Shown: positions 4,518-54,798 of the stretch, piece after piece | Numbering within the stretch: position 1 is the stretch's first letter | Layout: each line of letters begins with the position of its first letter | NCBI GenBank assembly: GCA_018715695.1 | Contig: DVLB01000027.1 | Coordinates: forward strand, 6,728-70,727 | Reading direction: 5' to 3' | DNA length: 64,000 bases | Source of the DNA: Candidatus Galloscillospira stercoripullorum | Lineage (GTDB): Bacteria; Bacillota; Clostridia; Oscillospirales; Oscillospiraceae | Notes under the pieces: generated by a model | Told to the model about the DNA's origin: nothing | The model's input: the letters and a program-made list of their open reading frames with translations, nothing else | Database searches by the model: none | Program-made: the position numbers and the translations under genes

Positions 4518-4577
4518 AGCGTGTATCCATGGTCAACGGCCCTTTGCGGCCGACTGCTGAGAAAAGGAGAGCGTAAT

Positions 4578-5015
4578 ATGACCATTTCTGAGAAGGTAGC
4601 CTACCTCAAGGGCCTGGCCGAGGGCCTGGCCATCGACACCGAGAAGTCCAAGGAGGGCAAGCTCATCGGCGTCATCATCGACGTGCTGGAGGAGATCGGC
4701 CTGTCCATCGAGGACCTGGAGGAGAACACCGTGGCGCTGGGCGAGGAGATCGACGCCCTGTCTGACGACCTGTCCGATGTGGAGGATGTGGTCTTTGAGG
4801 ACGAGGACGACGAGGATGACGAGTGCTGCTGCTGCGGCGACGATGAGGACGAGGATTTCTTCGAGACTCCCTGCCCTCACTGTGGTGAGGACCTGGTCAT
4901 CGACCAGGCCGTGCTGGATGCCGGCGTGGTGGAGTGCCCCAACTGCAAGGAGAAGTTCTCCGTGGGCTGCGAGGACGACGGCTGCGGCTGCGGCTGTGAC
5001 CACGACCACGAGTAA
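4578..5015 (+). CDS. Acidic Cys-rich protein with a C-terminal CxxC...CxxC zinc-ribbon-like motif (conserved hypothetical)
   Basis: RBS AAAAGGAGAG lies 7 nt before the ATG at 4578. The protein has a long D/E tract, CCCC, CPHCG...CPNCK and a GCGCGCDHDHE tail. Confidence 0.65.
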   Translation: MTISEKVAYLKGLAEGLAIDTEKSKEGKLIGVIIDVLEEIGLSIEDLEENTVALGEEIDALSDDLSDVEDVVFEDEDDEDDECCCCGDDEDEDFFETPCPHCGEDLVIDQAVLDAGVVECPNCKEKFSVGCEDDGCGCGCDHDHE

Positions 5016-5065: not shown

Positions 5066-5345
5066 TATCGAAAAACCTCCTCGCAGGGAAGTCTCACAGA
5101 GTTCCGTCGTCCGCAGACGACGGAATAAAATCAAAATCCGTTATTTCCGGGGACCTCAAACTCCCTCCTCGCGGCATAGCCGCTGCGGCCTACGCTAAAA
5201 ATGTGCCACCGGCACATTTTCTTTACGCTGCGGCCTCGGAAATGACACTTCTCATGACGGATGGGGTGACAATTTCGTAAGAAATCGAGCCCCGTCCGTC
5301 ATGCAGACTTTTGTTTGAAAAGACCTTTTGGTCTTTTCAAACAGT
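5066..5345 (+). repeat. Hairpin-mosaic intergenic repeat, family A (long copy)
   Basis: Collinear with the reverse complement of 9431..9636. Shared modules are CGCAGGGAAG, the hairpin TTCCGTCGTCCGCAGACGACGGAA, AATAAAATCAAAATCCGT, GGAAATGACACTTCTCATGACGGATGGGGTGAC...CCGTCATGCA and GAAAAGACCTTTTGGTCTTTTC. This copy has an extra internal block of about 85 nt. Confidence 0.85.
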
Positions 5346-9383: not shown

Positions 9384-9430
9384 TCGCTTTCCACCCGGGA
9401 AGGGGGACCCTGATGGTCCCCCTTCCCAGG

Positions 9431-9636
9431 GCTGTCGGAAAAGGCCAAAGGTCTTTTCCGACAAGGGGTTGCATGACGGATAGGGTTCGATTTCTGGCGA
9501 AACTGTCACCCCATCCGTCATGAGAAGTGTCATTTCCAAGGCGCATGTCCTTGGAAATGACGGATTTTGATTTTATTCCGTCGTCCGCTGACGCCGGAAC
9601 TTAAGCGAGGCTTCCCTGCGGGGAGGTCTTGCCAAA
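9431..9636 (-). repeat. Hairpin-mosaic intergenic repeat, family A (short copy, inverted relative to 5066..5345)
   Basis: Its reverse complement aligns module by module with 5066..5345. It is bracketed by two copies of a 31-nt hairpin, GGGAAGGGGGAC-N7-GTCCCCCTTCCC, at 9397-9427 and 9641-9671. Confidence 0.85.
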
Positions 9637-9699
9637 CTGTGGGAAGGGGGACAATCAGGGTCCCCCTTCCCTTTTTTTCATCGGTGTGATATAATGCCT

Positions 9700-11334: not shown

Positions 11335-12606
11335 TCAGTCGTCGTAGTCGGTCTCCCAGTCCAGGATGACGCCGGTGACGGCGTTGATGTCGCACTCATA
11401 CTCGGTGCGGCCGTTGCGCAGCTCCAGCTCGTAGACATAGCGCCCGTCGTCCCGGTCCAGCTCGCACTTGACCACGGTGGTGCCGCTGGGCACCTTGGCA
11501 AGCGCGAGGCGCTTAGCCTCGTCGGCGGTGATGAGGTCGTCGCTGGTGACGGTGCCGGTCTGGCCGCCGATGACATAGTCCTCGATGTCCCGGTCATAGC
11601 TCAGGATGGCGCCGGTGGTGGCGTCGATGTCGTAGTCATACTCGGTGTTGCCCGCGTAGAACTCCACCTCGTACTTGAGGTACCCGTCATCCCGCTCCAG
11701 CTGGTTCTTGAGGACCACGGCGCTGGAGGCGGACACGCCCGCGTGCTTCAGGGCGATCTCCTGGGCCCGGGCGGCGGTGATGGAGGCCTGGGTGGCGGTG
11801 CCGGTCTGGCCGGCCTGATAGCCCTCCACGTCCCGGTCATAGCTCAGGATGGTGCCGCTGGTGGCGTCGATGTCGTAGTCGTACTCGGTGTTGCCCACAT
11901 AGAATTCCACCTCATACTTGAGGCGTCCGTCGTCCCGCTCCAGCTGGTTCTTGAGGATCACGGCGCTGGAGGCGGACACGCCCGCGTGCTTGAGCGCGAT
12001 CTCCTGGGCCTGGGCCGCGGTGATGGAGGCCTGGGTGGCAGTGCCGGAGTTCCACAGGTCGTGGATGGTGTAATTCTCCAGGTCGTGGTCCACGCTGAGG
12101 ATGGCGCCGGTAGTGGCGTCGATGTCGTAGTCATACTCGGTGTTGCCGGAGTAGAACTCCACCTCGTAGACCATGCGCCCGTCGTCGAAGTCCAGGCGGG
12201 CCTTGAGGAAGACGGCCTCGGCGGCGGTGACGCCGGCGTCGGCAAGGGCGATCTCCTTGGCCTTGTCAGCGGTGATATAGGTGGAGGCGGCGGGGTCGGC
12301 GGCCAGGGCCACCTCGCTGGTGGTGAGCTGGGCGGTGTTCTGGTCGGCCACATAGGTCACGTTCAGGCCGGCGGCCTCGCACACGGCCCGGATGGGACCA
12401 TAGATGGTGCCGTTGTAGTTGAAGAGGGCCACTTCGTTGCCCTGCTCATCCTTGGGGGTGAAGCGGGCGCCGTTGATGGTGACGCGGACGTTGTCGCTCA
12501 CGGAGATAGTGCGGCTGGCGGCCAGGGCGGACACGCCAAGACCGATGGCCAGGGCGGAAACCAGGACGCCGGAAACGAGACCTCTGACAAATCCTCTGTT
12601 CTTCAT
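11335..12606 (-). CDS. Secreted protein with an N-terminal copper-amine-oxidase-like stalk domain and four PepSY domains
   Basis: Signal peptide followed by four repeats of the unit ITA..A..IAL..AGV....V.....L..DDG...YEVEF..GNTEYDYDIDA.TG.IL. Confidence 0.8.
   Translation of the reverse strand: MKNRGFVRGLVSGVLVSALAIGLGVSALAASRTISVSDNVRVTINGARFTPKDEQGNEVALFNYNGTIYGPIRAVCEAAGLNVTYVADQNTAQLTTSEVALAADPAASTYITADKAKEIALADAGVTAAEAVFLKARLDFDDGRMVYEVEFYSGNTEYDYDIDATTGAILSVDHDLENYTIHDLWNSGTATQASITAAQAQEIALKHAGVSASSAVILKNQLERDDGRLKYEVEFYVGNTEYDYDIDATSGTILSYDRDVEGYQAGQTGTATQASITAARAQEIALKHAGVSASSAVVLKNQLERDDGYLKYEVEFYAGNTEYDYDIDATTGAILSYDRDIEDYVIGGQTGTVTSDDLITADEAKRLALAKVPSGTTVVKCELDRDDGRYVYELELRNGRTEYECDINAVTGVILDWETDYDD
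11350..12290. repeat. Intragenic tandem duplication (about 240-bp PepSY-coding units)
   Basis: The two central units (about 11590-11830 and 11830-12070) are near-identical at DNA level. The outer units are more diverged. Confidence 0.8.
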
Positions 12607-18480: not shown

Positions 18481-18483
18481 ACG

Positions 18484-18524
18484 AAAAAAGGAGCGGGAGC
18501 TTTGTAAGCTCCCACTCCTTTTTC
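18484..18524. terminator. Bidirectional terminator (spoVT / ancestral asnS end)
   Basis: AAAAAAGGAGCGGGAGC-TTTGTAA-GCTCCCACTCCTTTTT. Confidence 0.75.
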
Positions 18525-18566
18525 GTTTAGAAATCCGCGTTGCCGACGGTGCGGGGGTGAGGAAGG

Positions 18567-18759
18567 CCCCAGCGGGGCACGCCCTGCCGGGGACCCCATT
18601 TTTCATTTGCCCGGGGCAAATGAATTGCCCCGGACCAAGGTTTTGGGCCTGTGGCCCAAAACGCTTGTACGGCGCGCCGCGCCGCCCCATCCAAGATGGG
18701 GCCCCGACGTCCTTCCCCCAAACGCTGGAGAAGATCGCCGGGGCCTCTTACTTCTTACA
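18567..18759 (+). repeat. Hairpin-mosaic repeat, family B, inserted at the asnS 3' end
   Basis: It shares the core GGGGACCCC...(stem)AAATGAATT(stem)...CAAGGTTTTG(stem)N3(stem)CAAAACGCTTG with 37813..37954 and with the reverse complement of 27710..27837. It is flanked by 40-nt copies of the asnS end at 18527-18566 and 18760-18799. Confidence 0.85.
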
Positions 18760-20154
18760 TTAGAAATCCGCGTTGCCCACCGTTCTGGGGTGGGGAAGGA
18801 CGTCGCGGATATTGCCGATGCCGGTGAGGTACATGACCATCCGCTCGAAGCCCAGGCCGAAACCGGCGTGTTTGCAGCCGCCGTAGCGCCGCAGGTCCAG
18901 GTACCACCAGTAATCCTCGGGATTCATACCCAGCTCCTTGATGCGGTTTTCCAGCACACTGAGCCGCTCCTCGCGCTGGGAGCCGCCGATGATCTCCCCG
19001 ATGCCGGGCACCAGGCAGTCGGCAGCGGCCACGGTCTTGCCGTCGTCGTTGAGGCGCATATAGAAGGCCTTGATGTCCTTGGGGTAGTCGGTGACGAAGA
19101 CGGGCTTCTTGAAAATCTGCTCGGTGAGGTAGCGCTCATGCTCAGTCTGCAGGTCGCAGCCCCACTCCACCTTGTACTCGAACTTGTCGTTGTTGGGCTT
19201 GAGCAGCTCGATGGCCTCGGTGTAGCTCACCCGGCCAAAGTCGGAGGATGCCACATGGGTGAGCCGCTCCTTGAGGCCCTTGTCCACGAAGGAGTTGAAG
19301 AAATCCATCTCGTCGGGGCACTTGGCCATGACGGTGTTGATGATGAACTTGATCATCTGCTCGGCCACGTCCATGTCGCCCTGGAGGTCGCAGAAGGCCA
19401 TCTCCGGCTCGATCATCCAGAACTCGGCGGCGTGGCGGGTGGTGTTGGACTTCTCGGCCCGGAAGGTGGGGCCGAAGGTATACACATCCCCGAAGGCCAT
19501 GGCGAAGTTCTCGGCGTTGAGCTGGCCGGAAACGGTCAGGTTGGCACTCTTGCCGAAGAAGTCCTGGCTGTAATCCACGCTGCCGTCCTCGGTGCGGGGC
19601 AGGTTCTCCAGGTCCAGGGTGGTGACCCGGAACATCTCACCGGCGCCCTCGCAGTCGCTGGCGGTGATGATGGGGGTGTGGACGTAGACAAAGCCCCGGT
19701 CCTGGAAGAAAGTGTGGATGGCGTGGGCGGCCACGCTGCGCACCCGGAAGGCGGCGGAGAAGAGGTTGGTGCGGGGCCGCAGGTGAGCGATGGTGCGCAG
19801 GTACTCCACGCTGTGGCGCTTCTTCTGCAGGGGATAGTCAGGGGTGGAGGGGCCCTCCACAGCGATGGAGGCGGCCTTGACCTCCAGAGGCTGCTTGGCC
19901 TCGGGGGTGAGGACCACCGTGCCGGTGACGGACAGGGCGGCGCCCACGTTCTGGGCGGCGATCTCCTTGTAATTGGCCAGCACGCCCGCGTCCATGACGA
20001 TCTGAAGGTTGCGGAAGCAGGAGCCGTCGTTGAGCTCGATAAAGCCGAAGGTCTTCATGTCCCGGATGGTGCGGGCCCAGCCGCAGACGGTGACCGTCTG
20101 CGCGCCAAAGCGCTCCTGGTCGGCGAAAATCTGCGCGATTTTGGTGCGTTCCAA
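18760..20154 (-). CDS. asnS: Asparagine--tRNA ligase
   Basis: 464 aa with an OB anticodon-binding domain and class IIb motifs, ending ...[33 protein letters not shown]. Confidence 0.95.
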
Positions 20155-23949: not shown

Positions 23950-25392
23950 TTACCAGAAAATATTGCCGCAGGTGCGCCATCCGTCGGTAAGCCGGATCTC
24001 CGTCACCACCTCGTCCGTGGCGGCAAATTCCCCGGTGGCCAGCGTGGCCGCCATCTCAAAGCCGCCCTCCGAGGCCGGGTAGCCCAGCTCCGCCGCCCGT
24101 TCCAGGCTGTCTCCCACCCGCAGGCCGGGCACGGTGGAGTAGGTATCGTCGGTGAGCCGCAGCGTGCAGACGAATTCCCGCTGGGGCCCGCCCTGCTCCC
24201 CGGCGGCCTCCATGAACGCCTCGTACACCGACTGCCCGTCTGCGATCCCCGCCACCCAGTCCTCCGGGTGCTCCCAGTCCAGGCGCACGGTCTGCACCTC
24301 CAGGCCGGGGGCGGTGTAGGTGGTGATGACCCAGGGGGAGGCCAGGTCCGGCCGGGTCTCCAGCAGCCGCTCCTCCCCGCCCCGCGCAAGCTCGGCGCGG
24401 AAATCCTCCGGCAACTCGTCCAGGGCCCGGCCCATGATGTCCAGGCCCAGAACGGTGATCATAGCCCGCTCGGCGTCGGCCGCGCCGGGAGAGCTCGTTC
24501 CGCCGGGATAGTCCCCCTCGTCTATGGAGGTGTCGTAGAAGGTGTCGAAGCGCCAGCCCGCCTCGGTGCGCACCATGGTGATGGGGAAGCGCAGGGCATA
24601 CTCGTACCCCGCCTTCAGCCGCGCCTCGCGCGCCTCCGCGCTCTCTCCCTCCAGGGGGTAGGTATAGGAGTAATAGCCCACCAGATAGAAGCTGATCTCG
24701 TTTTCCGAGCGGTAGAGAAGCTCGAAGGTGTCGGGGAAATACCCATTTTGCCAGTAGCGCCCGCCCTTGCTGGCAGCCACGAAGCACAGCCTGCCGTCCT
24801 TCTCCATATAAATCTTCTGCTCCCCGCCCAGATAGTTGTGCTCCAGGATAAAGGAGTCGGTGAACACCCCGCGGAGCAGGGCGTCGAAGTCCACCCAGTC
24901 CCGGTAGAGGCCCTTGGCGTACAGGTAGGTGTACCCGCCCTCCTCAAAGGACTCATAGGGCTCTGACGGAAAGTCGCCGGGGTACTGCTCAGCATACTCC
25001 ACCCCCGTGGTATCCAGACCGAAGACGTGGACATAGACGCTCCACGCCCGCCGGTAGAGGTCCTGCTGCTCCTCGTCCAGAAAATCGGGAACGGATACGG
25101 CCAGCTCCTCCTGTCCCAGGGGCGGCTGGGCCTGGGTGGGCTGTGGGTCGGTGGAGGGCGTCACTGACGCCGTGGGCACAGGCGAGGGCGTCAATGACGC
25201 ACTGGGCGCGGGGGAGGGCGTCATCGACGCCGTTGGCGCAGGGGAGGGTGTCACCGTTACCGCGGGCGAGGGCGTCACTGACACGCTGGGCGCAGGGGAA
25301 GGCGTCTCCGATGCGGATGGCGCGGGCGTGCATCCGGCCAACAGCAGCACGAGCACAGCGCTCATCGCCCGTTTTCCGATCTTCCGGTCCAT
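23950..25392 (-). CDS. Lipoprotein with a repetitive Pro/Ser/Thr linker (hypothetical)
   Basis: Start at MDRKIGKRAMSAVLVLLLAGC (lipobox LAGC, ATG at 25392). It contains TPSPAPSAS-type 11-aa repeats. Confidence 0.75.
   Translation of the reverse strand: MDRKIGKRAMSAVLVLLLAGCTPAPSASETPSPAPSVSVTPSPAVTVTPSPAPTASMTPSPAPSASLTPSPVPTASVTPSTDPQPTQAQPPLGQEELAVSVPDFLDEEQQDLYRRAWSVYVHVFGLDTTGVEYAEQYPGDFPSEPYESFEEGGYTYLYAKGLYRDWVDFDALLRGVFTDSFILEHNYLGGEQKIYMEKDGRLCFVAASKGGRYWQNGYFPDTFELLYRSENEISFYLVGYYSYTYPLEGESAEAREARLKAGYEYALRFPITMVRTEAGWRFDTFYDTSIDEGDYPGGTSSPGAADAERAMITVLGLDIMGRALDELPEDFRAELARGGEERLLETRPDLASPWVITTYTAPGLEVQTVRLDWEHPEDWVAGIADGQSVYEAFMEAAGEQGGPQREFVCTLRLTDDTYSTVPGLRVGDSLERAAELGYPASEGGFEMAATLATGEFAATDEVVTEIRLTDGWRTCGNIFW
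25150..25335. repeat. Intragenic 33-nt tandem repeats encoding the TPSPAP linker
   Basis: About six GAGGGCGTCANTGACGC..TGGGCGC.GGG units are visible on the plus strand. Confidence 0.75.
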
Positions 25393-25612
25393 CTCTCTTC
25401 TCCTTTCCGGCACAGGGGGCCGCCTGTCTCTTCCAATCTCATTGTACGGGATATTCCCCCTCAAATCAATCCCCCGCCCCCGCGTCCCTTTGCCTTTTTG
25501 ATAAATTTTCAGTTGTCATGGCGGCTCCATTGGTGTATAATGCCTAACATAGCCGCTGAGGCCCCAGCGGGGTCCGGCGCTGTCGCAACCCAAATAGTAA
25601 GGAGTGGAAACG

Positions 25613-27694
25613 ATGATGAGTTATTCCGCGCAAAACATCCGCAACATCTGCCTGCTGGGGCACGGCGGAAACGGAAAGACCTCCCTGGCAGAGAGCATGC
25701 TCTATCTCACCGGCGGGACCGACCGGCTGGGCAAGACCGCCGACGGGAACACCGTTTGTGACTATGATCCCGAGGAGAACCGCCGTCAGATTTCCATCTC
25801 CCTGTCGGTGGCTCCCGTGGAGTATAACGGCAGCAAGATCAACGTGCTGGACACTCCCGGCTACTTCGACTTCACCGGCGAGGTGATGGAGGCCCTTCAG
25901 GTCTCCGACGCCGCCGTCATCGTCTGCTCGGCCAAGGCCGGCATGAGCGTGGGCGCGGAGAAGGCGTGGAAGTACTGCGAGAAGCGTCGCCTCCCCCGCA
26001 TCCTCTACATCTCCAAGACCGACGAGGAAAATTCCGATTATAACGCCGCCTTCAACACCCTGCGCGAGCGCTTCGGCAAGAACATCGCCCCGGTGGTGGC
26101 CCCCATCTGGGATAAGAGCAAGAAGGTCATCGGCATCATCGACGTGCTCCAGAAGCGGGCCTTCGAGATGGGTGAGAAGGGCGAGCGCATCGAGATCGAG
26201 GTGCCCGAGGATAAGCTGAGCGTGCTCGACGAGCTCTATGAGCGGCTCAAGGAGTCGGTGGCCGAGACCAGCGAGGCCTTCATGGACAAGTTCTTCGCCG
26301 GCGAGGACTTCACCTACGCCGAGATGATCCAGGGCCTGCGCCAGGGCGTGAAGGACCTCTCCCTCTTCCCCGTGGTCTGCGGCAGCGCCTACTCTGGCCT
26401 GGGCACCCGCATGCTGCTGGACACCATCGTGGAGCTGCTGCCCAACCCCCTGGAGGGCCAGCCTCTCATGGGCGAGAACGCCGACGGCGAGATCAGCGAG
26501 TTCGTGGCCGCCCCCGGCGCCCTGCCCGCGGCCTATGTGTTCAAGACCGTCTCCGACCAGTACGGCAAGTACTCCTACCTCAAGGTGGTCTCCGGCTCCA
26601 TCAAGCCCGATATGTCCCTGGTCAACCCCCGCACCGGCGCCACCGAGAAGCTGGGTAGACTGTATGTGATGAAGGGCAAAAAGGCCGAGGAGGTCAAGGA
26701 GCTGCAGTGCGGCGACATCGGCGCCGTGGCCAAAATGGACAAACTGCGCACCGGCGACACCCTGTGTGACGCCCGCAAGGTAGTCAAACTGGAGCCCATC
26801 GACTTCCCCGAGCCCTGCTACTCCGTGGCGGTGACCCCCAAGGTCAAGGGCCAGGAGGACAAGATCGCCGCCGGCCTCACCCGTCTCTCTGAGGAAGACC
26901 CCTCCTTCACCTGGGTCAACAATGCCGAGACCCGGCAGATGGTGGTCTCCGGCGCCGGCGACATGCAGATGGACGTGATCGTCTCCCGGCTCAAGAGCCG
27001 CTTCGGCGTGGACGCCGAGCTCTCCGAGCCCCGGGTGGCCTACCGTGAGAAGATCCGCAAGAAGGTGGAGGTCCAGGGCCGCCACAAGAAGCAGACCGGC
27101 GGCCACGGCCAGTTCGGCGACGTGTGGATGCGCTTCGAGCCCGGCGAGAGCGAGGAGCTGGAGTTCTGCGAGGAGGTCGTGGGCGGCGCCGTGCCCAAGA
27201 ACTACTTCCCCGCGGTGGAGAAGGGCATGCGGGAGGCGGTACTCCACGGCGTGCTGGCCGGCTACCCGGTGGTCTACCTGAAGGCCACCCTCTTCGACGG
27301 CTCCTACCACCCGGTGGACTCTTCGGAAATGGCCTTCAAGACCGCTGTACAGCTGGCCTACAAGGCCGGTATGCCCCAGGCCAACCCCGTGCTGCTGGAG
27401 CCCATCGGCGAGCTGAAGGTCACCATTCCCGACAGCTACATGGGCGACATCATCGGCGACCTCAACAAGCGCCGGGGCCGCGTTATGGGCATGAACCCCG
27501 ACCACGAGGGCAACCAGGTGGTGGAGGCCGAGGTGCCCATGGCCGAGATGAGCCGCTACGCCATCGACCTGCGGTCCATGACCCAGGGCCGGGGCTCCTT
27601 CACCTTCCACTTCGTCCGCTACGAGGACGCCACCCCCGCCGCCCAGGAAAAGGCCATCGCTGCGGCCAAGGCCATGCAGGACGAGGAAGGCTGA
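25613..27694 (+). CDS. Elongation factor G family GTPase (EF-G paralog)
   Basis: G1 GHGGNGKTS, DTPGYFDF and NKxD-equivalent motifs plus domains II-V. AAGGAG lies 8 nt before the ATG at 25613. It is not in the canonical rpsL-rpsG-fusA context. Confidence 0.88.
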   Translation: MMSYSAQNIRNICLLGHGGNGKTSLAESMLYLTGGTDRLGKTADGNTVCDYDPEENRRQISISLSVAPVEYNGSKINVLDTPGYFDFTGEVMEALQVSDAAVIVCSAKAGMSVGAEKAWKYCEKRRLPRILYISKTDEENSDYNAAFNTLRERFGKNIAPVVAPIWDKSKKVIGIIDVLQKRAFEMGEKGERIEIEVPEDKLSVLDELYERLKESVAETSEAFMDKFFAGEDFTYAEMIQGLRQGVKDLSLFPVVCGSAYSGLGTRMLLDTIVELLPNPLEGQPLMGENADGEISEFVAAPGALPAAYVFKTVSDQYGKYSYLKVVSGSIKPDMSLVNPRTGATEKLGRLYVMKGKKAEEVKELQCGDIGAVAKMDKLRTGDTLCDARKVVKLEPIDFPEPCYSVAVTPKVKGQEDKIAAGLTRLSEEDPSFTWVNNAETRQMVVSGAGDMQMDVIVSRLKSRFGVDAELSEPRVAYREKIRKKVEVQGRHKKQTGGHGQFGDVWMRFEPGESEELEFCEEVVGGAVPKNYFPAVEKGMREAVLHGVLAGYPVVYLKATLFDGSYHPVDSSEMAFKTAVQLAYKAGMPQANPVLLEPIGELKVTIPDSYMGDIIGDLNKRRGRVMGMNPDHEGNQVVEAEVPMAEMSRYAIDLRSMTQGRGSFTFHFVRYEDATPAAQEKAIAAAKAMQDEEG

Positions 27695-27709
27695 GGCTCC
27701 TCCCCCCTC

Positions 27710-27837
27710 GGCTGACGCCGCAGGTGCGGCGTCCCAAGCGTTTTGCCGCCAGGCAAAACCTTGATGCCGGGCGGATTCATTCCGCCCGAGCAGATCAAGT
27801 GCGGGGTCCCCAAAAAGCCTCCGCTTTTTGGGGCGCG
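27710..27837 (-). repeat. Hairpin-mosaic repeat, family B, inserted just after the EF-G stop codon
   Basis: Its reverse complement carries the family-B core (GGGGACCCC...GGGCGGAATGAATCCGCCC...CAAGGTTTTGCCTGGCGGCAAAACGCTTG). It is flanked by about 60-nt copies of the EF-G end at 27650-27709 and 27838-27896. Confidence 0.85.
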
Positions 27838-27920
27838 AAAGCTATCGCCGCTGCCAAGGCCATGCAGGATGAGGAGGGCTGAGACTCCTCCCCTCTGTGC
27901 CAAACCAAACCCATAAAGCG

Positions 27921-27957
27921 AGGTCCCCGGCCCAAATGGGCCGGGGACCTTTTTGTG
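27921..27957 (+). terminator. Rho-independent terminator (ancestral EF-G terminator)
   Basis: AGGTCCCCGGCCC-AAAT-GGGCCGGGGACCT followed by TTTTGTGTTT. Confidence 0.8.
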
Positions 27958-27982
27958 TTTCGTCAGAGTGCGGATATGGACA

Positions 27983-32364: not shown

Positions 32365-34737
32365 TTGCTGAACAAATACCGTGTGCATGAGGTTGCCAAG
32401 GACTTTGGCAAAAATTCTAAGGAGATCGCCGATATTCTCACCGCCTACGCCACAGCGCCCAAGAACCATATGCAGGTGCTGGAGGACAAGGAGCTCTCCC
32501 TGATCTTTGAGTATCTGACCCAGCACAACGAGATCGAGAGCATCGAGAGCGTCTTTGCCGAGGTCTACCATGAGCCCAAGGCCCCGGCCGCCGCGCCCAA
32601 GGCGCAGCCTGCGGCCAAGGCCGCTGACCACGCCGCCGCGCCCGCCCAGGGCGGCGACGCAGCCAAGAGCGCCGCTCCCGCTCAGAGCGGGGAGGGCAGC
32701 GCGCCCAAGGCGCCTCAGCAGGAGAGCGCGCCCCGCAGCGCCACCCGGGTGCCCGAGAAGAAGGTGGTAGACACCCGCAAGGCCACCAACGTGAACCTGG
32801 ACAAGTACGACGAGCGGCTGGAGAACATCGCCTCCCAGCGCACCCAGAACCCCCATATGCAGGCCGGCAAGCAGAAGTTCCAGGGCCGGGGCCAGCGCCG
32901 GGGCGGCGGCTTCCAGGGCAACAAGCGCCGGGCCGAGGAGCAGGAGAAGATGCGCCGTCTCCAGGCCGAGATCGCCAAGAAGCACCCCACCGTGGTCAAG
33001 ATCCCCGACGAGATCGCCGTGGGCGAGCTGGCCTCCCGCATGAAGAAGACCGGCGCCGAGGTGGTCAAGTGCCTGATGAAAAACGGCGTCATGGCCTCTC
33101 TGAGCGAGATCATCGATTTCGACACCGCCGCCATCATCGCCGAGGAGATGGGCTGCAAGGTGGAGAAGGAGGTCATCGTCACCATCGAGGAGAAGCTCAT
33201 CGACACCGCCGAGGACAAGGCCGAGGACCTGGTGCCCCGGGCCCCCGTGGTGGTGGTCATGGGCCACGTGGACCACGGCAAGACCTCCCTGCTGGACTAT
33301 ATCCGGGACAGCCATGTGGCCGCCGGAGAGGCCGGCGGCATTACCCAGCATATCGGCGCCTACCAGGTGGAAGTCCAGGGCAAGCCGGTCACCTTCCTGG
33401 ACACCCCCGGCCACGAGGCCTTTACCGCCATGCGGGCCCGGGGCGCCATGATCACCGACATCGCCATCCTGGTCGTGGCCGCCGACGACGGCATCATGCC
33501 CCAGACGGTGGAGTCCATCAGCCACGCCAAGGCCGCGGGCATCCCCATCATCGTGGCCATCAACAAAATGGATAAGCCCGACGCCAACCCCGACCGCATC
33601 AAGGAGCAGCTCACCGCCTACGAGCTGGTGCCCGAGGAGTGGGGCGGCGAGACCATCATCTGCCCTATCTCGGCCAAGACCGGCATGGGCATCGACAACC
33701 TGCTGGACATGGTGGTGCTCACCGCCGAGATGCAGGAGCTCAAGGCCAACCCCAACCGCTCCGCCCACGGTGCCGTCATCGAGGCCCGGCTGGACAAGGG
33801 CCGCGGCCCCATCGCCACCCTGCTGGTGCAAAACGGCACCCTTCACCAGGGCGACGTGATCATCGCCGGCACTGCCGTGGGCCGCGTGCGCGCCATGACG
33901 GACCACACCGGCAGAAAGGTCACCCAGGCGGGTCCCTCGGTGCCTGTGGAGATCATCGGCATGAGCGAAGTGCCCGGCGCAGGCGACGACTTCCACGCCG
34001 TGGCCGACGAGCGCATGGCCCGTGAGCTGGTGGAGCAGCGCAAGCATGAGCAGAAAACCCTCACCACCGGCGGCGTGAAGCAGAAGGTCTCCCTGGACGA
34101 TCTGTTCAGCCAGATCCAGGCCGGCGAGATGAAGGATCTGAACATCATCGTCAAGGCCGACGTTCAGGGCAGCGCCGAGGCGGTGAAGTCCTCCCTGGAG
34201 AAGCTCTCCAACGAGGAGGTCCGGGTCCGGGTCATCCACAGCGCCGTTGGCGCCATCAGCGAGAGCGATGTGATGCTGGCCGCCACCTCCGGGGCCATCA
34301 TTGTGGGCTTCAACGTCCGTCCCGACAACAACGCCCGGGACAACGCCGCCCGGCTGGGCGTGGATATGCGGATGTACCGCGTGATCTATGACGCCATTGA
34401 AGAGATCGAGACCGCCATGAAGGGCATGCTGGCTCCCAAGTTCCGGGAGGTGGCCCTGGGCCAGGCTGAGGTGCGGGAGGTCTTCAAGATCACCGGCGCA
34501 GGCATCGTGGCCGGTTGCTACGTCACCGAAGGCAAGATCCAGCGCGGCGCCCAGCTGCGGCTCATGCGGGAAAACATCGTCATCCACGAGGGCGTCATCG
34601 CCACCCTCAAGCGCTTCAAGGACGACGTCAAGGAGGTCGCCCAGGGCTATGAGTGCGGCATTACCATTGAAAAGTACGGCGACGTGAAGATCGGCGACGT
34701 CATCGAAGCGTTTATTATGGAACAGATCCAGGTGTAA
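32365..34737 (+). CDS. infB: Translation initiation factor IF-2
   Basis: GTPase domain ([21 protein letters not shown]). TTG at 32365 lies 6 nt after GGAGGTG and gives [15 protein letters not shown]. In-frame alternatives are the ATG at 32350 and the GTG at 32260. Confidence 0.9.
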
Positions 34738-36804: not shown

Positions 36805-37757
36805 CCATGACCATCCAGGAGGCCGCCGCCTTCCTCGCCGCCCACGACGGCTATCTCATTCTCACCCATGTCCGGCCCGACGGGGACACGGTGGGCTCCG
36901 CCGCCGCTCTGTGCCGGGGTCTCCGGCAGCTGGGCAAGCGGGCCTTCGTGCTGCCCAATCCCGAGGCTACCGCCCTCTTCACCCCCTATTTTGAGGGCCT
37001 GCTCTCTCCCGAGGGCTTTGCGCCTGATACAGTGGTGTCAGTGGACATCGCCGCCCGTTCCCTCTTTCCGAAAAACGCGGAGCCCTATGTGGAGCGGGTG
37101 GATCTGGCCATTGACCACCACCCCTCCCAGGAGTTTTTCGCCCGGGAGACCTGTCTGGACAGCGGTCGGGCTGCCTGCGGGGAGCTGATGTATGACATTC
37201 TCCGGGAGCTGGGCCCCCTGAGCGCCGAGATGGGAGAGGCTCTCTATGTGGCCGTGTCCACCGACTGCGGCTGCTTTGTTTACAGCAACACCACCCCCGA
37301 CACCCACCGGGTGGCGGCCGCGCTCATGGAGACCGGCTTTGACGCCTTCCCTGTAAACCGCCGCTTCTTCCGCACCAAGTCCTTCAAGCGGCTGAAGCTG
37401 GAGGGGATGCTCACCGAGGGCATGGAGCTGCGGGACGGCGGTTCCACCGCTCTGGTCTTCCTCACCATCGCCATGGTGGACGCTCTGCAGGCCACCGAGG
37501 AGGACATGGACGACATCTCCGCCTTCGTAGGTCAGATCGAGGGAGTACGCACCGGGGCCACCCTGAAGGAGACCCGGGACGGGAACGTGAAGATCTCACT
37601 GCGCACCGACCCCGCCGACCTCAACGCCAGCGCCGTGTGCGCTCTGCTGGGGGGCGGCGGCCACGCCGCCGCCAGCGGTGCCATGCTCCGGGGAGTCACC
37701 ATGGCCCAAGCCCGGCAGGCCTTGGTGGACGCCATGGAGAAGGTGCGCCATGGCTGA
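36801..37757 (+). CDS. nrnA: DHH/DHHA1 phosphoesterase (NrnA-type oligoribonuclease/pAp phosphatase)
   Basis: HVRPDGDTVGS, AIDHHPS and GGGHAAASG motifs. The start overlaps the rbfA stop. Confidence 0.85.
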   Translation: MTMTIQEAAAFLAAHDGYLILTHVRPDGDTVGSAAALCRGLRQLGKRAFVLPNPEATALFTPYFEGLLSPEGFAPDTVVSVDIAARSLFPKNAEPYVERVDLAIDHHPSQEFFARETCLDSGRAACGELMYDILRELGPLSAEMGEALYVAVSTDCGCFVYSNTTPDTHRVAAALMETGFDAFPVNRRFFRTKSFKRLKLEGMLTEGMELRDGGSTALVFLTIAMVDALQATEEDMDDISAFVGQIEGVRTGATLKETRDGNVKISLRTDPADLNASAVCALLGGGGHAAASGAMLRGVTMAQARQALVDAMEKVRHG

Positions 37758-37812
37758 CGGCATCCTCATCATCGACAAGCCCGCCGCTTGGACAAGCATG
37801 GACGTATGCGCC

Positions 37813-37954
37813 CCACGCCCAAGGATGGGCGCGGGGACCCCTAAGATTTTCTCATCCTCGGCGGAAATGAATTCCGCCTGCGGCAAGGTTTTGCCTCCGG
37901 CAAAACGCTTGTACGGCGCAAAAGCGCCGGATCTTGGCGCACGGGAGGCTCTCT
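37813..37954 (+). repeat. Hairpin-mosaic repeat, family B, inserted 63 nt into the ancestral truB 5' end
   Basis: It carries the family-B core (GGGGACCCC...GGCGGAAATGAATTCCGCC...CAAGGTTTTGCCTCCGGCAAAACGCTTGTACGGCGC). It is flanked by 63-nt copies of the truB start at 37750-37812 and 37955-38017. Confidence 0.85.
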
Positions 37955-38827
37955 ATGGCTGACGGCATCCTCATCATCGACAAGCCCTCCGGGTGGACAA
38001 GCATGGACGTGTGCGCCAAGCTGCGGGGCGTGTTCCACGAAAAGCGCATCGGCCACGGCGGCACTCTGGACCCCATGGCCACGGGGGTGCTGCCCGTCTT
38101 CATCGGCCGGGCCACCCGGGCAGTGGAGTTTGCGGACAAATCCGACAAGGAATATGTGGCCCAGTTACAACTGGGCGTGATCACCAACACCCAGGATATG
38201 AGCGGCACGGTACTGGAGCAGCGGCCGGTTTCCGTGACGGAGGAGGCGCTGGACGGGGCACTCTCCCTCTTCCGGGGGGAGATCGACCAGGTGCCCCCCA
38301 TGTACTCCGCCATCAAGATCGGCGGACAGAAGCTCTACGAGCTGGCCCGGAAGGGCCATGAGGTGGAGCGGCCGCCCCGGCGGGTCACCATCCGCTCCCT
38401 GACGGTGGAGAGGCGGGAGGCTCCCGACCGCTTCACCCTGCGCGTGCGCTGTTCTAAAGGTACCTATGTACGCACCCTCTGCCACGACATCGGGCAGGCC
38501 CTGGGCTGCGGCGGGTGCATGGCCTCTTTGCGCCGGACCGAGGCGGCGGGCTTTTCTTTGTCAGACGCCGTTACCCTGGAGCAGGTGCTTGAGGCCGAAG
38601 ATCCCCTTGCCCTCCTGCTGCCGGTGGACGCCTATTTTGCCGGCCGGCCCATGCTCATCCTGCGGGGAGCGGAGGAGAAGAAGCTGCGCAACGGCATGAC
38701 CCTGACCGCCCCGCCGCAGCTCTCCCCGGGCGAGCTGCGCGTCTATGGCGAGAACGGGGAATTCCTCGCCCTGTGCCGCTGCGACGGTGGGCGGCTGATT
38801 ACCATCAAAAGTTTTTTCAAGGTGTGA
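37955..38827 (+). CDS. truB: tRNA pseudouridine(55) synthase
   Basis: MADGILIIDKPSGWTSMDV...HGGTLDPMATGVLPV. GGGAGG lies 6 nt before the ATG at 37955. Confidence 0.92.
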   Translation: MADGILIIDKPSGWTSMDVCAKLRGVFHEKRIGHGGTLDPMATGVLPVFIGRATRAVEFADKSDKEYVAQLQLGVITNTQDMSGTVLEQRPVSVTEEALDGALSLFRGEIDQVPPMYSAIKIGGQKLYELARKGHEVERPPRRVTIRSLTVERREAPDRFTLRVRCSKGTYVRTLCHDIGQALGCGGCMASLRRTEAAGFSLSDAVTLEQVLEAEDPLALLLPVDAYFAGRPMLILRGAEEKKLRNGMTLTAPPQLSPGELRVYGENGEFLALCRCDGGRLITIKSFFKV

Positions 38828-51785: not shown

Positions 51786-52014
51786 GGAACATGCTCCTTC
51801 CTGTTCTTCCGTCCTACTTCTAGGGTGGACGGGTATGGGCGGGACGGCTCTGCACGGCAGCTTTTCCTTCCCGGCCTGCTCTGTCCTTTCAGTATACATC
51901 CGATTCATCCGGCAGGACAACCCCATTTCCTCACCACCCGGCAAAGGAGGGATATACAAAAGCGGGGCCGCTGCGCTGGGCTCGCGCGGGGGCCCCAGGA
52001 GCTGGGCGAGGTAA

Positions 52015-52052
52015 AAGGGGCCGCTGCCTTTTGCCCGTGTCCCATAAGGAAA
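52015..52052. other. attL: host hairpin arm (52015-52028) joined to the left terminal repeat of the element
   Basis: AAGGGGCCGCTGCC is the exact reverse complement of 61206-61219. The following TTTTGCCCGTGTCCCATAAGGAAA is an imperfect inverted repeat of the right end. Confidence 0.75.
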
Positions 52053-52091
52053 CCCAAGGACAGGCAGACGGGCGAGTGGTAAATTGAACAG

Positions 52092-52129
52092 AACCGGGGA
52101 CCGGCAAGAAGCTGGTCCCCGGTTTTGTT
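52092..52129. terminator. Hairpin with flanking T tracts near the left end of the element
   Basis: AACCGGGGACC-N11-GGTCCCCGGTT followed by TTGTT on the plus strand. Confidence 0.55.
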
Positions 52130-52410
52130 ATGCTCTGGTCCCTGTGTCTATTGTGGTGTGGTAGCAGACAGACCGAGCAGTGCTGTCCCTCTCGGCCCTG
52201 CCTATCTCACGCCCCGCAGGGCGTCAGAGCGACAGCAATCCCCACGGGGACGAGGCCACAAGTTACCACCACCAACCGGCGGGGGATTGCGAAGGAGCGT
52301 ACCCACCTTATTCCCCGCCTTGCTTACGGCTCCGTCACTTGCCCGGCCTCCGCCCGTGGCGGGCCACCGGCTCCCAGCTTACCGGACAAGCCTCTCTCTG
52401 AACAACAAAA
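52130..52410. other. G+C-rich, stem-dense non-coding block inside the element (candidate structured RNA or single-strand origin)
   Basis: No plausible CDS is present. All three forward frames are open across 52180-52401 but their translations are not protein-like. Stems: 52209-14/52219-24, 52235-43/52282-90 (9 bp), 52294-301/52325-33 and 52350-54/52358-62. Hairpins bracket the block on both sides. Confidence 0.5.
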
Positions 52411-52414
52411 AGCT

Positions 52415-52449
52415 CGGAACACTTGTACGCTCAAGTGTCCGGGCTTTTT
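52415..52449. terminator. Bidirectional terminator downstream of the XRE gene
   Basis: CGGAACACTTG-TACGCT-CAAGTGTCCG with AAAAAGC on the left and GGCTTTTT on the right. Confidence 0.7.
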
Positions 52450-52759
52450 ATGTCTTTTCATTCATGGCTTTCATAATTTCTAATACTGCCATTTTTTGCC
52501 GAGACGTTAGATTTGCCCATTGACGGAATACTGCATCCAGTTCCGGGGTCAGCTCCACCATTTCCCCCTCTGCAAAGAACTGTGAAAGTGTTATTCCAAA
52601 CCCTTTGCAAATTGCTTCTAAAGTGGAGACCGAAGGAATGGTATTGCGCTTATAGATATTTGCTATTGTGGCATGGGACAAGTTGCTGTTTTTTGCCAGA
52701 CGATAGGTTGTCCATCCTTGACTTTCCAACAGCTGGTGTAGCCTTTCCAGAACATCCAT
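52448..52759 (-). CDS. XRE-family helix-turn-helix transcriptional regulator (element repressor candidate)
   Basis: WTTYRLAKNSNLSHATIANIYKRNTIPSVSTLEAICKGFGITLSQFF is a classic XRE HTH. It is divergent from the cargo operon. Confidence 0.88.
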   Translation of the reverse strand: MDVLERLHQLLESQGWTTYRLAKNSNLSHATIANIYKRNTIPSVSTLEAICKGFGITLSQFFAEGEMVELTPELDAVFRQWANLTSRQKMAVLEIMKAMNEKT

Positions 52760-52905
52760 ACTTTCAACACCATCCTTTTGTAGCTATTTTATCGTTAAGC
52801 TTGATGGTATTATATGAAAGTATTGTAACTATATTATTGTTATGTTAGAATATAATTCGAGCAGCACAGCGAGAGTGCGAATGAAAGCTTGAAAGGACTG
52901 ATATT
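52760..52905. promoter_or_regulatory. A+T-rich divergent promoter/operator region
   Basis: Plus strand: TTGTAA, a 17-nt spacer, then TAGAAT at about 52823-52851. ATTGTWA half-sites are repeated (ATTGTAAC, ATTGTTAT). Confidence 0.5.
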
Positions 52906-53505
52906 ATGAGTAACCAAAGCGGCGGCTGGGATACCGCCATTGAGACCCAGAACTACACCCCCAGCGGAGGGGCGGCCCCGCAAAAGGGCGCAAGTATCTT
53001 GGTTGACCAGAGCGAGAGCATTGTGTCCACCATCGGCAGCAACTATTTGCAAAATTTCCTTTCCGGCGGCACGGTGTCGAAGGGCGTAGGCGTCCTGACC
53101 CAGAGGCGATTTTACTACAAGGGCAGGAATTTCAGCGGTTCGGGTAAAGATATGAAAGTAACCACTGAGGAAGGGGTCGTATCTATTGAGGATATTACCT
53201 TCAGCAATTTTTCTTACACAAGAAACATTGGTGCCTTGGTTGTAGGCTTACTGCTGGCTGTTGTAGGTGCTTTTTGTACTCTTTTTTTAGGCGGCTACGG
53301 CAGCATCGGCGGACTTGGACTGTTAGGAGTTGCTGCTTTCCTGTTGGTCAATTTTTTTGTCAGTCGAAAATCTCTTTTTATCGTTTCCTTCCCCGGCGGC
53401 AGTTTTGGTTTTGACATTCGTTATTACCCCATTTCCGACATTCGGGACTTCCAGCGGCAGCTTCACCTATTAAAAGACCACCGCAAGGAGGACGGGAACC
53501 TATGA
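52906..53505 (+). CDS. Membrane protein, paralog 1 (PH-like beta domain interrupted by a TM hairpin)
   Basis: GVLTQRRFYYKGR...EDITF, then two TM helices, then LFIVSFPGGSFGFDIRYYPISDIRDFQRQLHLL. A purine-rich stretch (AAAGGA) lies 8 nt upstream of the ATG. Confidence 0.75.
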   Translation: MSNQSGGWDTAIETQNYTPSGGAAPQKGASILVDQSESIVSTIGSNYLQNFLSGGTVSKGVGVLTQRRFYYKGRNFSGSGKDMKVTTEEGVVSIEDITFSNFSYTRNIGALVVGLLLAVVGAFCTLFLGGYGSIGGLGLLGVAAFLLVNFFVSRKSLFIVSFPGGSFGFDIRYYPISDIRDFQRQLHLLKDHRKEDGNL

Positions 53506-54266
53506 GGGAACAGTACCCCTTTTTCCGGGAGGAGGACGAGCGCACCCGGGCGGTCATCGGCGCGGACGCTGCGGAAGCGGATCTGGGCGGAGAATATCAA
53601 AAACCCTACGCTATTCTTACCCAGAAGCGGCTCTACTGTAAGAACGAAGCAGGAAATTTTATTACACAGTCTGCTGACCTGCGGGGAGTGGGCAAAAGTT
53701 TTCCACCTGAGCTAACACAATGGTTTTGGGCAGAAGTAGTTTGTATGGTATTGCTCGTTTGTATGGTCATCTTCTATCATTTTGCTCCGTGGGGGCATAA
53801 CAATTTGAATGATTATTATAGTGCAGTCGGCTCTCTCGCTCAAATGCCTGCATCTGCTTATTTTGACCTGCTTGTGTCTGTTCTTTTGTGCCTCGAATGT
53901 GTTATCGCCTATATATTTATTTTTCAGAAAAGTTTTACAGCAGCTCATCGGCTGGTGTCGGTAGCTATAATAACAGCTCTGGCGTATAGCATTTTTTTAT
54001 GCAGTAAAAGACTTCTTGACCATTCCCTTACTGGTTGGATAGGGGTTAGTTTTGATGATGTTTTTTTACCGCTTATGTCCCTCGTAGCGATTATATCTTT
54101 TGTGTTGTCTGTTATAAATAGTTGGCATAGCAAAAGAAATGTTACCTTTCAAATTACCCACAACGCCGGCGCCTTTTCCTTTAACCCCAGACTGTATTCC
54201 TCTGCCGAGCTGAAACACTTTGCAGCCCAGGTTAAGACCCTAAAAGCAGGTGACGCAAATGGGTAA
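53502..54266 (+). CDS. Membrane protein, paralog 2 (same split architecture, larger TM block)
   Basis: ATGA overlap with paralog 1. YAILTQKRLYCKNEAG, then about 5 TM helices, then VTFQITHNAGAFSFNPRLYSSAELKHFAAQVKTL. Confidence 0.75.
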   Translation: MREQYPFFREEDERTRAVIGADAAEADLGGEYQKPYAILTQKRLYCKNEAGNFITQSADLRGVGKSFPPELTQWFWAEVVCMVLLVCMVIFYHFAPWGHNNLNDYYSAVGSLAQMPASAYFDLLVSVLLCLECVIAYIFIFQKSFTAAHRLVSVAIITALAYSIFLCSKRLLDHSLTGWIGVSFDDVFLPLMSLVAIISFVLSVINSWHSKRNVTFQITHNAGAFSFNPRLYSSAELKHFAAQVKTLKAGDANG

Positions 54267-54798
54267 TAACCCCGGTTTTCTGCTCGGCGGTGCCTCTTGC
54301 TCCGCTGTCCTTACCGCCGAAACCGTCACCCTCAGCGGGAACTATTACCGCTATGACATTCACAAACGGCGCAAGGTGTCCGGGACTGTCACGGTGGACT
54401 TGCTCAATGTGCTTCGGGTGGGGCTTACCAAAACCTATTCCCGCCTAATGCTGGCCGTCCCAATGTGTTTCGGTTTCGCCGCTTTAGGCATCAAGGCCAT
54501 TCCCTCTGTCGAGGTAAAAAAGACCCTTTTGGAAATTCCAGATGTTTGGAGCTTCTCCCCTGGCGTTACATTCTGGAGCCTGCCCCACCAGGATTTCCTG
54601 TGGAAGCTGTGCGCCGTGCTGTGCCTGCTCACCATCCCCCTGTACTGGTTGAGCTACCGCAACGATTTGGAGGTCAACACCACCCAGGGCCGCTATCTGC
54701 TGCCCCAGAAAGGAATGGACGCGGCACAGATCGCCAGCTTCCAGCGAGAGTTTACGCAAGCAAAAATAGCTCGACAGAAGCAGAGCAAGCGTATATAA
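54250..54798 (+). CDS. Membrane protein, paralog 3 (same split architecture)
   Basis: 17-nt overlap with paralog 2. AVLTAETVTLSGNYYRY, then TM helices, then LEVNTTQGRYLLPQKGMDAAQIASFQREFTQ. Confidence 0.7.
   Translation: MTQMGNNPGFLLGGASCSAVLTAETVTLSGNYYRYDIHKRRKVSGTVTVDLLNVLRVGLTKTYSRLMLAVPMCFGFAALGIKAIPSVEVKKTLLEIPDVWSFSPGVTFWSLPHQDFLWKLCAVLCLLTIPLYWLSYRNDLEVNTTQGRYLLPQKGMDAAQIASFQREFTQAKIARQKQSKRI

Follow-up and report, generated by a model that had tools for sequence, protein, structure and literature searches.

How can the end of a gene come to stand twice in a bacterial genome, once in use and once out of frame, with nothing but silent differences between the two copies? This question is raised by a stretch of 64,000 nt from contig DVLB01000027.1 of Candidatus Galloscillospira stercoripullorum (Oscillospiraceae); the whole of this stretch is called the window hereafter. 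In it, the 3′ end of a gene for a paralog of elongation factor G (EF-G) is duplicated around an insert of a repeat termed family B, a non-coding element of ~130 nt with four to five hairpins. With a probability of roughly 0.68, we propose that the EF-G duplication represents the two junctions left by a small non-coding module that entered the gene within its last 14 codons, and that family B consists of gene-end replacement modules. The locus is composed of the following features.

25613-27694, plus strand: coding sequence of the EF-G paralog, 693 aa, the target gene (P0001, 100% identical; Pfam GTP_EFTU, EFG_III, EFG_IV and EFG_C)
27644-27709, plus strand: putatively foreign patch, made of the codons CAG GAA, copy 1 and a 15-nt trailer (comparison of contigs L124 and L121)
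27650-27708, plus strand: copy 1 (c1), the in-frame functional last 14 codons, stop and trailer, apparently element-borne (sequence and comparison with empty strains)
27710-27836, plus strand: family-B scaffold of the EF-G module, apparently mosaic, without the target-complementary segment described below
27838-27896, plus strand: copy 2 (c2), the resident gene end, displaced and out of frame (matches empty-site strains)
27920-27961, plus strand: native intrinsic terminator of the EF-G paralog, joined to c2 without interruption, just as it is where the site is empty

c1 and c2 are direct copies of 59 nt with 86% identity and a spacing of 188 nt, flanking the insert as a preliminary description of this DNA had reported. 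c1 is in frame with the EF-G paralog, and the offset of 188 nt puts c2 out of frame, so that read-through cannot translate it. The 42 sense nucleotides contain six differences (AAG/AAA, GCC/GCT, GCT/GCC, GCG/GCT, GAC/GAT and GAA/GAG), all of them at third positions and synonymous, and the translation of both copies is KAIAAAKAMQDEEG-stop. Six random changes would give such an outcome with a chance of ~8e-5; a second duplicated gene end in the window, that of asnS, has five differences, again all synonymous (chance ~1e-3). The earlier claim that this pattern is incompatible with neutral decay of a duplicate is therefore upheld. The trailer of the c1 allele is GGCTCCTCCCCCCTC, and a terminator-like hairpin with a T-run lies 3′ of c2 at 27920-27961. 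A comparison of codon usage does not set the copies apart: the log-likelihood is -10.9 for c1 and -13.6 for c2, with several codons that are rare in the gene in both. The duplication of the EF-G gene end is confirmed as real. Beyond the preliminary description, the present analysis adds a cause of the silent differences, a family-wide pattern, a third case in the window (the 5′ end of truB) and segments complementary to the insertion site.

Which of the two copies is the resident one? Near-identical EF-G proteins were looked up and led to independent assemblies of the same species, of which ten places are shown. In nine of these ten, a DUF1576 gene starts 100 nt after the EF-G stop, that is, the site is empty; the remaining one (L124) has a gap of 288 nt as in the window and is occupied. 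With L139, ten contigs of the species are empty, and an additional empty site is found in a 94%-identical relative (L130). The empty allele reads GCCGCC CAA GAG AAA GCT AT(T/C) GCC GCT GCC AAG GCC ATG CAG GAT GAG GAG GGC TGA GACTCCTCCCCTCTGTGCC, then the terminator. In other words, empty-site contigs read CAAGAGAAAGCTAT(T/C)GCCGCTGCC...GATGAGGAGGGCTGAGACTCC, which is c2 followed by the terminator, and only one polymorphic third-position site (ATC vs ATT) separates c2 from the sole gene end of these strains. On the other hand, when occupied L124 or the window is compared with empty L121, the 2.1-kb gene shows one single-nucleotide polymorphism (SNP) and, apart from it, a cluster of 13 differences within 65 nt. 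This dense patch is the c1 tract; it sets in two codons before the duplication boundary (CAG GAA vs CAA GAG) and extends to the element. Since empty strains carry the c2-type end only and occupied strains differ by the c1 patch, c2 is the resident gene end, displaced from its place, and c1 appears to be foreign, an allele that once worked elsewhere and came in together with the insert. The differences between c1 and c2 would be silent because both alleles evolved as working gene ends. The preliminary description had proposed to look for strains with an uninterrupted gene-terminator arrangement. Such strains exist, with c2 adjoining the original terminator in the same order as in the window, and their existence disposes of the possibility that the second copy belongs to a conserved, unrelated small open reading frame (ORF) downstream. 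An assembly artefact, the other possibility raised there, does not account for the arrangement either, because the identical occupied locus is present in the independent assembly L124. Two empty EF-G alleles are mosaics (L120, and L130 at 4534-4600), with c2-type ends and a c1-like ATC GCT GCG between them; these are either conversion footprints or shared ancestral polymorphism. A metagenome scan for c1- and c2-type alleles yielded a single contig, empty and c2-type, and no c1 donor lineage.

In a second species (protein P0011, 92% identical), three states of the locus were seen, namely two empty alleles and an occupied one. L136 carries an empty allele of c1 followed by terminator 1, L153 an empty allele of c2 followed by terminator 2, and L131-L135, L137 and L138 are occupied. 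The flanks of the occupied haplotype (L131) match L153, with 25 vs 400 differences in the upstream 1 kb, and the c1 and terminator 1 that precede its element are of the L136 type. The switch of haplotype occurs between nucleotides 2028 and 2043 of the gene, around the insertion point, which we call X. Thus, the resident copy is determined in two species, and presence or absence of the module is polymorphic within species. In the empty allele of L153, TGG stands for the stop, and the resulting protein of 711 aa (P0015; L153 1501-3636) reads 19 residues through the terminator hairpin. In this allele, a decayed displaced copy probably became the gene end after loss of the module.

Family B extends far beyond this gene. 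A scan of one genome per species with the invariant core CAAGCGTTTTG-N(6-18)-AAAACCTTG found at least 119 stretches, and more than 100 genomes carry the family, nearly all of them from Oscillospiraceae (Flavonifractor, Pseudoflavonifractor, Lawsonibacter, Intestinimonas, Oscillibacter and Dysosmobacter). One cultured carrier is Flavonifractor plautii ATCC 29863, whose copies are those in L016, L051 and L114. From an alignment of 72 copies, the scaffold is ordered as an optional hairpin P0, hairpin P1, the invariant P2 in the core, P3, an A-rich linker, GGGGTCCCC and the long P4. The parts of the EF-G copy are located as follows.

27714-27733, plus strand: P1
27735-27763, plus strand: CAAGCGTTTTG..AAAACCTTG with P2
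27768-27788, plus strand: P3
27803-27811, plus strand: GGGGTCCCC
27808-27833, plus strand: P4

The P3 loop is ATTCAYT family-wide and ATTCATT in this copy. The P4 stem has a median of 11 bp, against 5.2 bp in shuffled sequences, and 64 distinct arm sequences among 68 copies; its fifth pair is a conserved G.T. Non-Watson-Crick positions inside the stems are G:T in 36 cases and A:C in 6. This imbalance argues for selection of the fold on B(+) alone, whether in RNA or in single-stranded DNA (ssDNA). Single-sequence folds are 4.4-6.1 standard deviations more stable than shuffles (z -4.4 to -6.1). From a MAFFT alignment, RNAalifold predicted no more than P2 and part of P3, the variable hairpins being out of register, and hairpin conservation was counted directly. 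It was also considered that the P4 hairpin might be copied from the target; this was rejected, since self and other similarity are equal (6.29 vs 6.12). No hit to Rfam 15 was found in the window at the gathering threshold, and a search with the element alone at E<10 gave nothing credible, the best sub-threshold match scoring 17.7 bits against a cut-off of 125.8. Neither GenBank phages nor PLSDB plasmids gave a family-B match. IMG/VR contains seven contigs with ordinary modules and no autonomous version. Among such viral contigs are L160, L157/L158 and L156, and L160 has a 95-nt duplication of a phage gene end with a matching complementary segment; phages may carry modules between lineages. In variants adjacent to tRNA genes (L019, L027, L060, L065 and L073), an A/T-rich terminator-like hairpin takes the place of P4 and borders directly on a tRNA (or tRNA-like) gene of the opposite strand, at its 3′ end. 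The left end of L019 has a 12-nt copy of the tRNA(-like) 3′ end with its reverse complement directly after it. Keyword searches of the literature, which were not exhaustive and are weak evidence of novelty, found no description of such an element, and family B is apparently undescribed so far.

The duplication seen at EF-G is a general property of these copies. A direct duplication of 25-140 nt flanks 85 of the 116 copies with enough flank (among the matches listed), and its right copy begins immediately after P4. In the 66 gene-3′-end cases among the matches listed, differences are distributed over the three codon positions as 38/24/182. The proportions of synonymous (pS) and non-synonymous (pN) differences are 0.217 and 0.018, giving a pN/pS of 0.08, with Ser AGT/TCT switches included. 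In most copies the duplication stops exactly at the stop codon, even where the coding part is 100% identical. Past the stop, a lineage-specific spacer follows the left copy and the native 3′ untranslated region (UTR) and terminator follow the right one; the two are unrelated to each other. Around ten copies (among the matches listed) lie antisense at gene 5′ ends, such as those of truB and lepA. Reading along B(+), one always meets the functional terminus to the left of the scaffold and its displaced counterpart to the right. Recurrent targets are infB (at least 19 loci), tuf, asnS, the EF-G paralog, a gene for an AraC-type regulator, tRNA genes and phage genes, and the codon at the junction is constant in infB across genera and in EF-G in two species. 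Tandem arrays and copy-number polymorphism occur (L104 and L145). Displaced copies decay: the stop has become CAA in L151 and TGG in L131, and the minus-strand copy in L003 has an in-frame TAG.

How might a module be directed to the end of one particular gene? Immediately 5′ to the scaffold, a segment of 10-18 nt reads as the reverse complement of the gene across the left boundary of the duplication. Its score has a median of 11, compared with 5.7 +/- 1.2 for mismatched locus pairs (control 99th percentile 9), and 84-87% of copies exceed the control 95th-99th percentile (among the matches listed). The paired stretch extends, in the median, from -5 to +8 relative to the boundary, with X inside. 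The presence or absence of P1 and P0 sets how far the segment lies from the core, at 1-2, 19-22 or 33-40 nt. In infB orthologues the segment covaries with its target, TCAAGGAGGGCGAC / GTCGCCCTCCTTGA in one case and CAAGGAAGGCGACA / TGTCGCCTTCCTTG in another. Where the two gene-end copies differ, the segment agrees with the element-side copy in 10 cases vs 5, with 17 ties, a weak result in the direction expected if the gene-end copy and the segment travel together. Enrichment of G:T wobbles at the edges of the segment-target pairing was not found (34/271). A typical module, read on the B(+) strand, is thus composed of the functional terminus (from X to the stop or start), a spacer, the complementary segment of 10-18 nt, and P0/P1-P4, after which the displaced resident terminus follows. 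Its right junction, from P4 to the target, is precise, and its left side merges seamlessly with the gene, including two co-converted codons in the window.

When the window was scored against a covariance model built from 52 copies, exactly three family-B copies were found: 27710-27836 on the plus strand (110 bits), 37808-37935 on the minus strand (109 bits) and 18564-18690 on the minus strand (94 bits). The latter two are the scaffolds of modules at truB and asnS, respectively.

18760-18799, minus strand: functional asnS end, element-side copy (target of the segment at 18792-18805)
18705-18718, minus strand: asnS target-complementary segment GGGGAAGGACGTCG, the reverse complement of CGACGTC/CTTCCCC across the duplication boundary (CGACGTC|CTTCCCC)
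18564-18690, minus strand: family-B scaffold of the asnS module (P0 hairpin just upstream on the minus strand, 18691-18704)
18527-18566, minus strand: displaced asnS end, then the native bidirectional terminator at 18481-18527
37955-38017, plus strand: functional truB 5′ end, element-side copy in B(+) orientation (the spacer at 37943-37954 supplies the ribosome-binding site GGGAGG)
37933-37942, minus strand: truB target-complementary segment GTGCGCCAAG, complementary to CTTGGCGCAC at 38011-38020
37808-37935, minus strand: family-B scaffold of the truB module
37750-37812, plus strand: displaced truB 5′ fragment, with PAAW in place of PSGW, in fusion with the DHH-family gene upstream, at the 3′ end of that gene

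The asnS copies show four synonymous codon differences, AGA/CGC among them. The third module (37750-38017) is antisense at the 5′ end of truB, with a 63-nt truB duplication and a new ribosome-binding site. A spurious ORF of 70 aa is annotated across it in all ten same-species contigs, and two tandem units of it are present in L145 and probably also in L149. The segment is present at two of the three copies in the window (asnS and truB). The EF-G copy is without it, and the complementarity score there is 6, the background level. In the P0011 species, the EF-G-specific lineage has the segment GGCCTTCTCC against GGAG|AAGGCC. P4 and the junction of the window copy match this lineage (30/32), and its P1-P3 are nearly identical to a copy at a different gene (44/47 and 32/32). 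By this comparison, the window EF-G copy seems to be a recombinant (mosaic) that lost its segment, and it is probably a stranded copy. The end of infB at 34660-34737 is an empty site in the window and corresponds to what infB-specific modules replace in other species. Its codons are unusually AT-rich (GAA, TTT and ATT), and the last 25 codons have a GC content at third positions (GC3) of 0.72 vs 0.89 in the gene body. This AT-rich end may be a relic of past occupancy.

What is present at these loci is resolved by the anatomy, the polymorphism within species, the identity of the resident copy in two species, the constraint on the B(+) fold and the covariation of segment and target. How it came about can be pictured as follows. 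c1 would derive from another lineage, in which it was a real gene end. The complementary segment would guide a single-stranded module (RNA or ssDNA) to the intact cognate target, where one end, on the P4 side, would be joined at X, the other end would be resolved by homology with the gene body, and the enzyme would be supplied in trans. At EF-G, the module (c1 and the ~130-nt scaffold, an insert of ~190 bases) would join in such a way that the reading frame runs on into c1, and c2, the resident end, would be pushed 188 nt downstream together with its terminator and go unused. A target-primed, one-sided mechanism would give the observed asymmetry, either retrohoming from a read-through transcript or ssDNA 'peel-and-paste' with an extended guide. 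If the module were excised, or if the two copies recombined, an intact gene using the displaced copy would result, and the P0015 allele looks like such a product. More tentatively, and at somewhat below even odds, family B might be a previously undescribed class of non-autonomous, nucleic-acid-guided mobile elements. Its copy-specific guide of 10-18 nt would home each module into the end of one conserved gene (infB, tuf, asnS, fusA-like genes, lepA, truB, tRNAs and phage genes are the targets named), its replacement terminus would spare essential genes, an enzyme acting in trans or a host enzyme would drive it, and gene-end alleles would be swapped between lineages.

Several observations weigh against the proposal of gene-end replacement modules. 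No recombinase, reverse transcriptase or transposase was found near at least 119 loci when all ORFs in ~900 kb were clustered; only housekeeping families recur, infB in 19. In the window, none was found near the family-B copies by Pfam analysis of 30 ORFs, and the only recombinase in it, a large serine recombinase, lies 32 kb away in an unrelated island. Because no enzyme was found near the copies, mobility and guide function are inferred. The window EF-G copy is without a complementary segment, so guided insertion is not arguable from that copy alone. The foreign tract begins two codons upstream of the boundary, which a strictly conservative exchange at X would not give; therefore, co-conversion or a homologous crossover is required. 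c1 equals c2 in many modules, which needs a conspecific donor or later homogenization. The missing excess of wobbles at the pairing edges gives no sign of RNA-level selection there. Some young-looking long duplications hold the segment in both copies (L024 and L025), which we interpret as tandem or partly deleted modules. Finally, the rise of a new target specificity, that is, of a new gene-end copy together with a new segment, is unexplained.

Other explanations have to be weighed against the same evidence. Nearly all copies lie between direct repeats, and in some cases (L030, L040, L056 and L069) the two repeats are 100% identical, as would be expected of a miniature inverted-repeat transposable element (MITE) with an unusually long (59-nt) target-site duplication of the IS1634/IS1549 type, the copies being identical at birth and diverged since. 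This is very unlikely, because neutral decay of an unused copy predicts ~60% non-synonymous differences, whereas the pN/pS is 0.08, with AGA/CGC and AGT/TCT switches. Moreover, the 13 differences of the c1 patch stand together in a gene that otherwise equals that of empty strains and begin upstream of the duplication, and similarity mostly ends at the stop codon, with unrelated sequence beyond, even when the coding part is identical. A fill-in target-site duplication is unable to produce such a break. An artefact of assembly or sequencing is contradicted by the occupied locus in independent assemblies and by the same architecture in more than 100 genomes. A diversity-generating retroelement (DGR), with its pair of template and variable repeats, would likewise have a gene 3′ end duplicated nearby, next to a structured RNA. 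However, the differences are not adenine-specific (four of six are C/T, and the other two have no consistent adenine-bearing template side), no reverse transcriptase is nearby and the targets are housekeeping genes, so that the chance of either the artefact or a DGR is negligible. It was also supposed that the downstream copy is selected because it is expressed, through intron-like removal of [c1...B] from the RNA, frameshifting or a small peptide. A low pN/pS would follow from this, the duplication is bounded by the stop codon, the segment is laid out like the internal guide sequence of group I introns (end of the 5′ exon plus start of the 3′ exon), and P4 has its conserved G.T pair. But c2 is simply the resident allele of empty strains and out of frame, displaced copies lose stops or gain nonsense codons, and around ten modules are antisense at gene 5′ ends (truB and lepA), where splicing of the mRNA is impossible. 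In addition, the scaffold is far below the size of any group I/II core and Rfam is empty, which makes expression of the copy highly improbable.

The remaining alternative dispenses with any dedicated mobility. Family B could be a passive structured repeat, for example an RNA element of 3′ UTRs, with its copies and allelic differences generated by host homologous recombination only, through excision and integration of circles via the repeated gene end, unequal crossing-over, and imports from relatives in which family B serves as portable homology; we consider this unlikely. The tandem arrays and copy-number polymorphism (L104 and L145), the mosaic family-B copies and mosaic empty alleles (L120 and L130) and the lack of a linked enzyme gene are all as recombination would have it, and either polarity of the resident copy can be obtained by a single crossover. 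Indeed, host recombination clearly also acts on these loci, as seen from arrays, mosaics and homogenized copies. However, recombination alone leaves three things unaccounted for: the copy-specific reverse complement of the exact junction at a fixed distance in 85% of copies, the precise junction of P4 and target at the same codon across genera (infB and EF-G), and the first duplication at each of dozens of genes.

If the proposal of gene-end replacement modules is true, about one module per 20 kb (three in the 64-kb window) sits inside the ends of the most conserved and most expressed genes, and would be harmless because each brings its own spare gene end. The proposal would account for duplicated coding ends with silent-only differences and for abrupt patches of foreign alleles at gene termini, and it would give lineages a means of exchanging short stretches of their core genes. 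It would also mean target recognition by base pairing in an element that encodes no protein, whose partner enzyme and programmability are directly testable. Even in the most conservative reading, an abundant, structured and unannotated element family is added to the genomes of gut Oscillospiraceae, and it will confuse gene calling (spurious 70-aa ORFs and proteins with an extended C-terminus, P0015 for example) as well as SNP analyses at the level of strains.

Some further features of the window stand apart from family B. Just upstream of the EF-G paralog, an unannotated ORF of 504 aa (23950-25464, minus strand) contains a 30-nt periodic repeat, GGCGTCACTGACGC...GGGCGCAGG, at 25135-25326; it is kept in some same-species contigs and a LytTR-containing arrangement is found instead in others. 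A different repeat family occurs at 5100-5328 and 9397-9671, with inverted pairs of 96 and 55 nt (86-89% identity) and a 32-nt near-perfect palindrome pair, bracketing a segment of ~4 kb in which an export operon (ABC/MacB/HlyD) is located. L131 and L136 have a hairpin-rich element of similar appearance downstream of EF-G. The low-GC3 island at 52000-61220 is bounded by a 37-nt inverted repeat (52015-52051 / 61183-61219) and ends with the large serine recombinase (59480-61144; Resolvase, Recombinase, Zn ribbon and DUF4368), which adjoins the gene for enolase; the island probably represents an integrated mobile element that has no relation to family B. The gene at 11335-12606 (minus strand) has three to four tandem repeats of 243-252 nt (11363-12299, 75-91% identity), which correspond to four PepSY domains.

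Finally, to which known systems can family B be compared? None of the systems compared was found to match family B on all defining features, and to our knowledge no known family joins a spare gene end and an internal guide in a protein-less element of 200-300 nt. Membership among transposons or MITEs with target-site duplication fails on the pN/pS of 0.08, the break at the stop codon and the putatively foreign c1 patch, and among DGRs on the C/T differences (4/6), which lack an adenine-specific pattern, and the lack of a reverse transcriptase. Like the guides of group I/II introns and the bridge RNAs of IS110, family B has an internal segment that pairs across the insertion point and would set specificity. 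Unlike them, it has no ribozyme-sized core, and no intron-encoded protein or DEDD recombinase was found; it also duplicates part of its target and can sit antisense to the target gene. The covariance models of Rfam 15 gave no hit to a group I/II catalytic core in the window, and the antisense placement at truB and lepA argues against splicing as a general property. Of the IS110-type features, a single target-complementary segment was found and no linked recombinase, a donor-binding segment not having been systematically searched for. In the IS200/IS605 family, a short DNA guide by a hairpin pairs with the cleavage or target site, excision is seamless, and non-autonomous copies are mobilized in trans. 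Family B resembles the palindrome-associated transposable elements (PATEs) of this family in being small, hairpin-rich and strand-specific, with a guide that pairs with the site (for background on IS200/IS605 and PATEs, see PMC10055086; 10.1101/2023.11.20.567912). Its hairpins likewise point to one active strand (G:T 36 vs A:C 6), being kept while their sequence varies. However, the IS200/IS605 guide is 4-5 nt long and the same for the whole family, with no duplication and no gene-end cargo, whereas the complementary stretch of family B is 10-18 nt long, unique per copy and 40-100 nt from the matched site, and no Y1 transposase was seen. In place of a shared tetra- or pentanucleotide target without duplication, unique 10-18-mers and duplications of 25-140 nt were found.

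Replacement of a gene end is known from two other kinds of element. Free-standing homing endonuclease genes of organelles and phages can replace gene ends, as in the hybrid atp6 of Allomyces and in intronless homing with co-conversion. As in family B, a foreign in-frame C-terminal piece comes with mobile DNA, the original end becomes a downstream pseudo-copy, and the flanking exon is co-converted, which can be compared with the two upstream codons in the window; unlike family B, which encodes nothing and has no linked nuclease, they encode the endonuclease that drives them. The other kind consists of integrative elements that rebuild the terminus of the gene they enter, such as prophage e14 and phage 21 in icd and islands in the 3′ ends of tRNA and tmRNA genes. 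These are kilobases long, encode an integrase and use a fixed att site, whereas family B is a non-coding insert of ~190-300 nt with dozens of target genes, each copy having its own gene-end copy and reverse complement of the site, and no recurrent cluster of recombinases, reverse transcriptases or transposases was found in ~900 kb around at least 119 copies. In these integrative elements as in family B, a substitute terminus is carried, a hybrid intact gene is formed and the displaced resident fragment lies on the opposite side; the block of identity ends with the gene, and the copies differ by function-preserving substitutions. The marks of gene-end restoration are found for family B in the window species, in the P0011 species and at truB: the module is polymorphic at exactly one position of the gene, the element-side copy completes the gene, and the displaced copy stands opposite.

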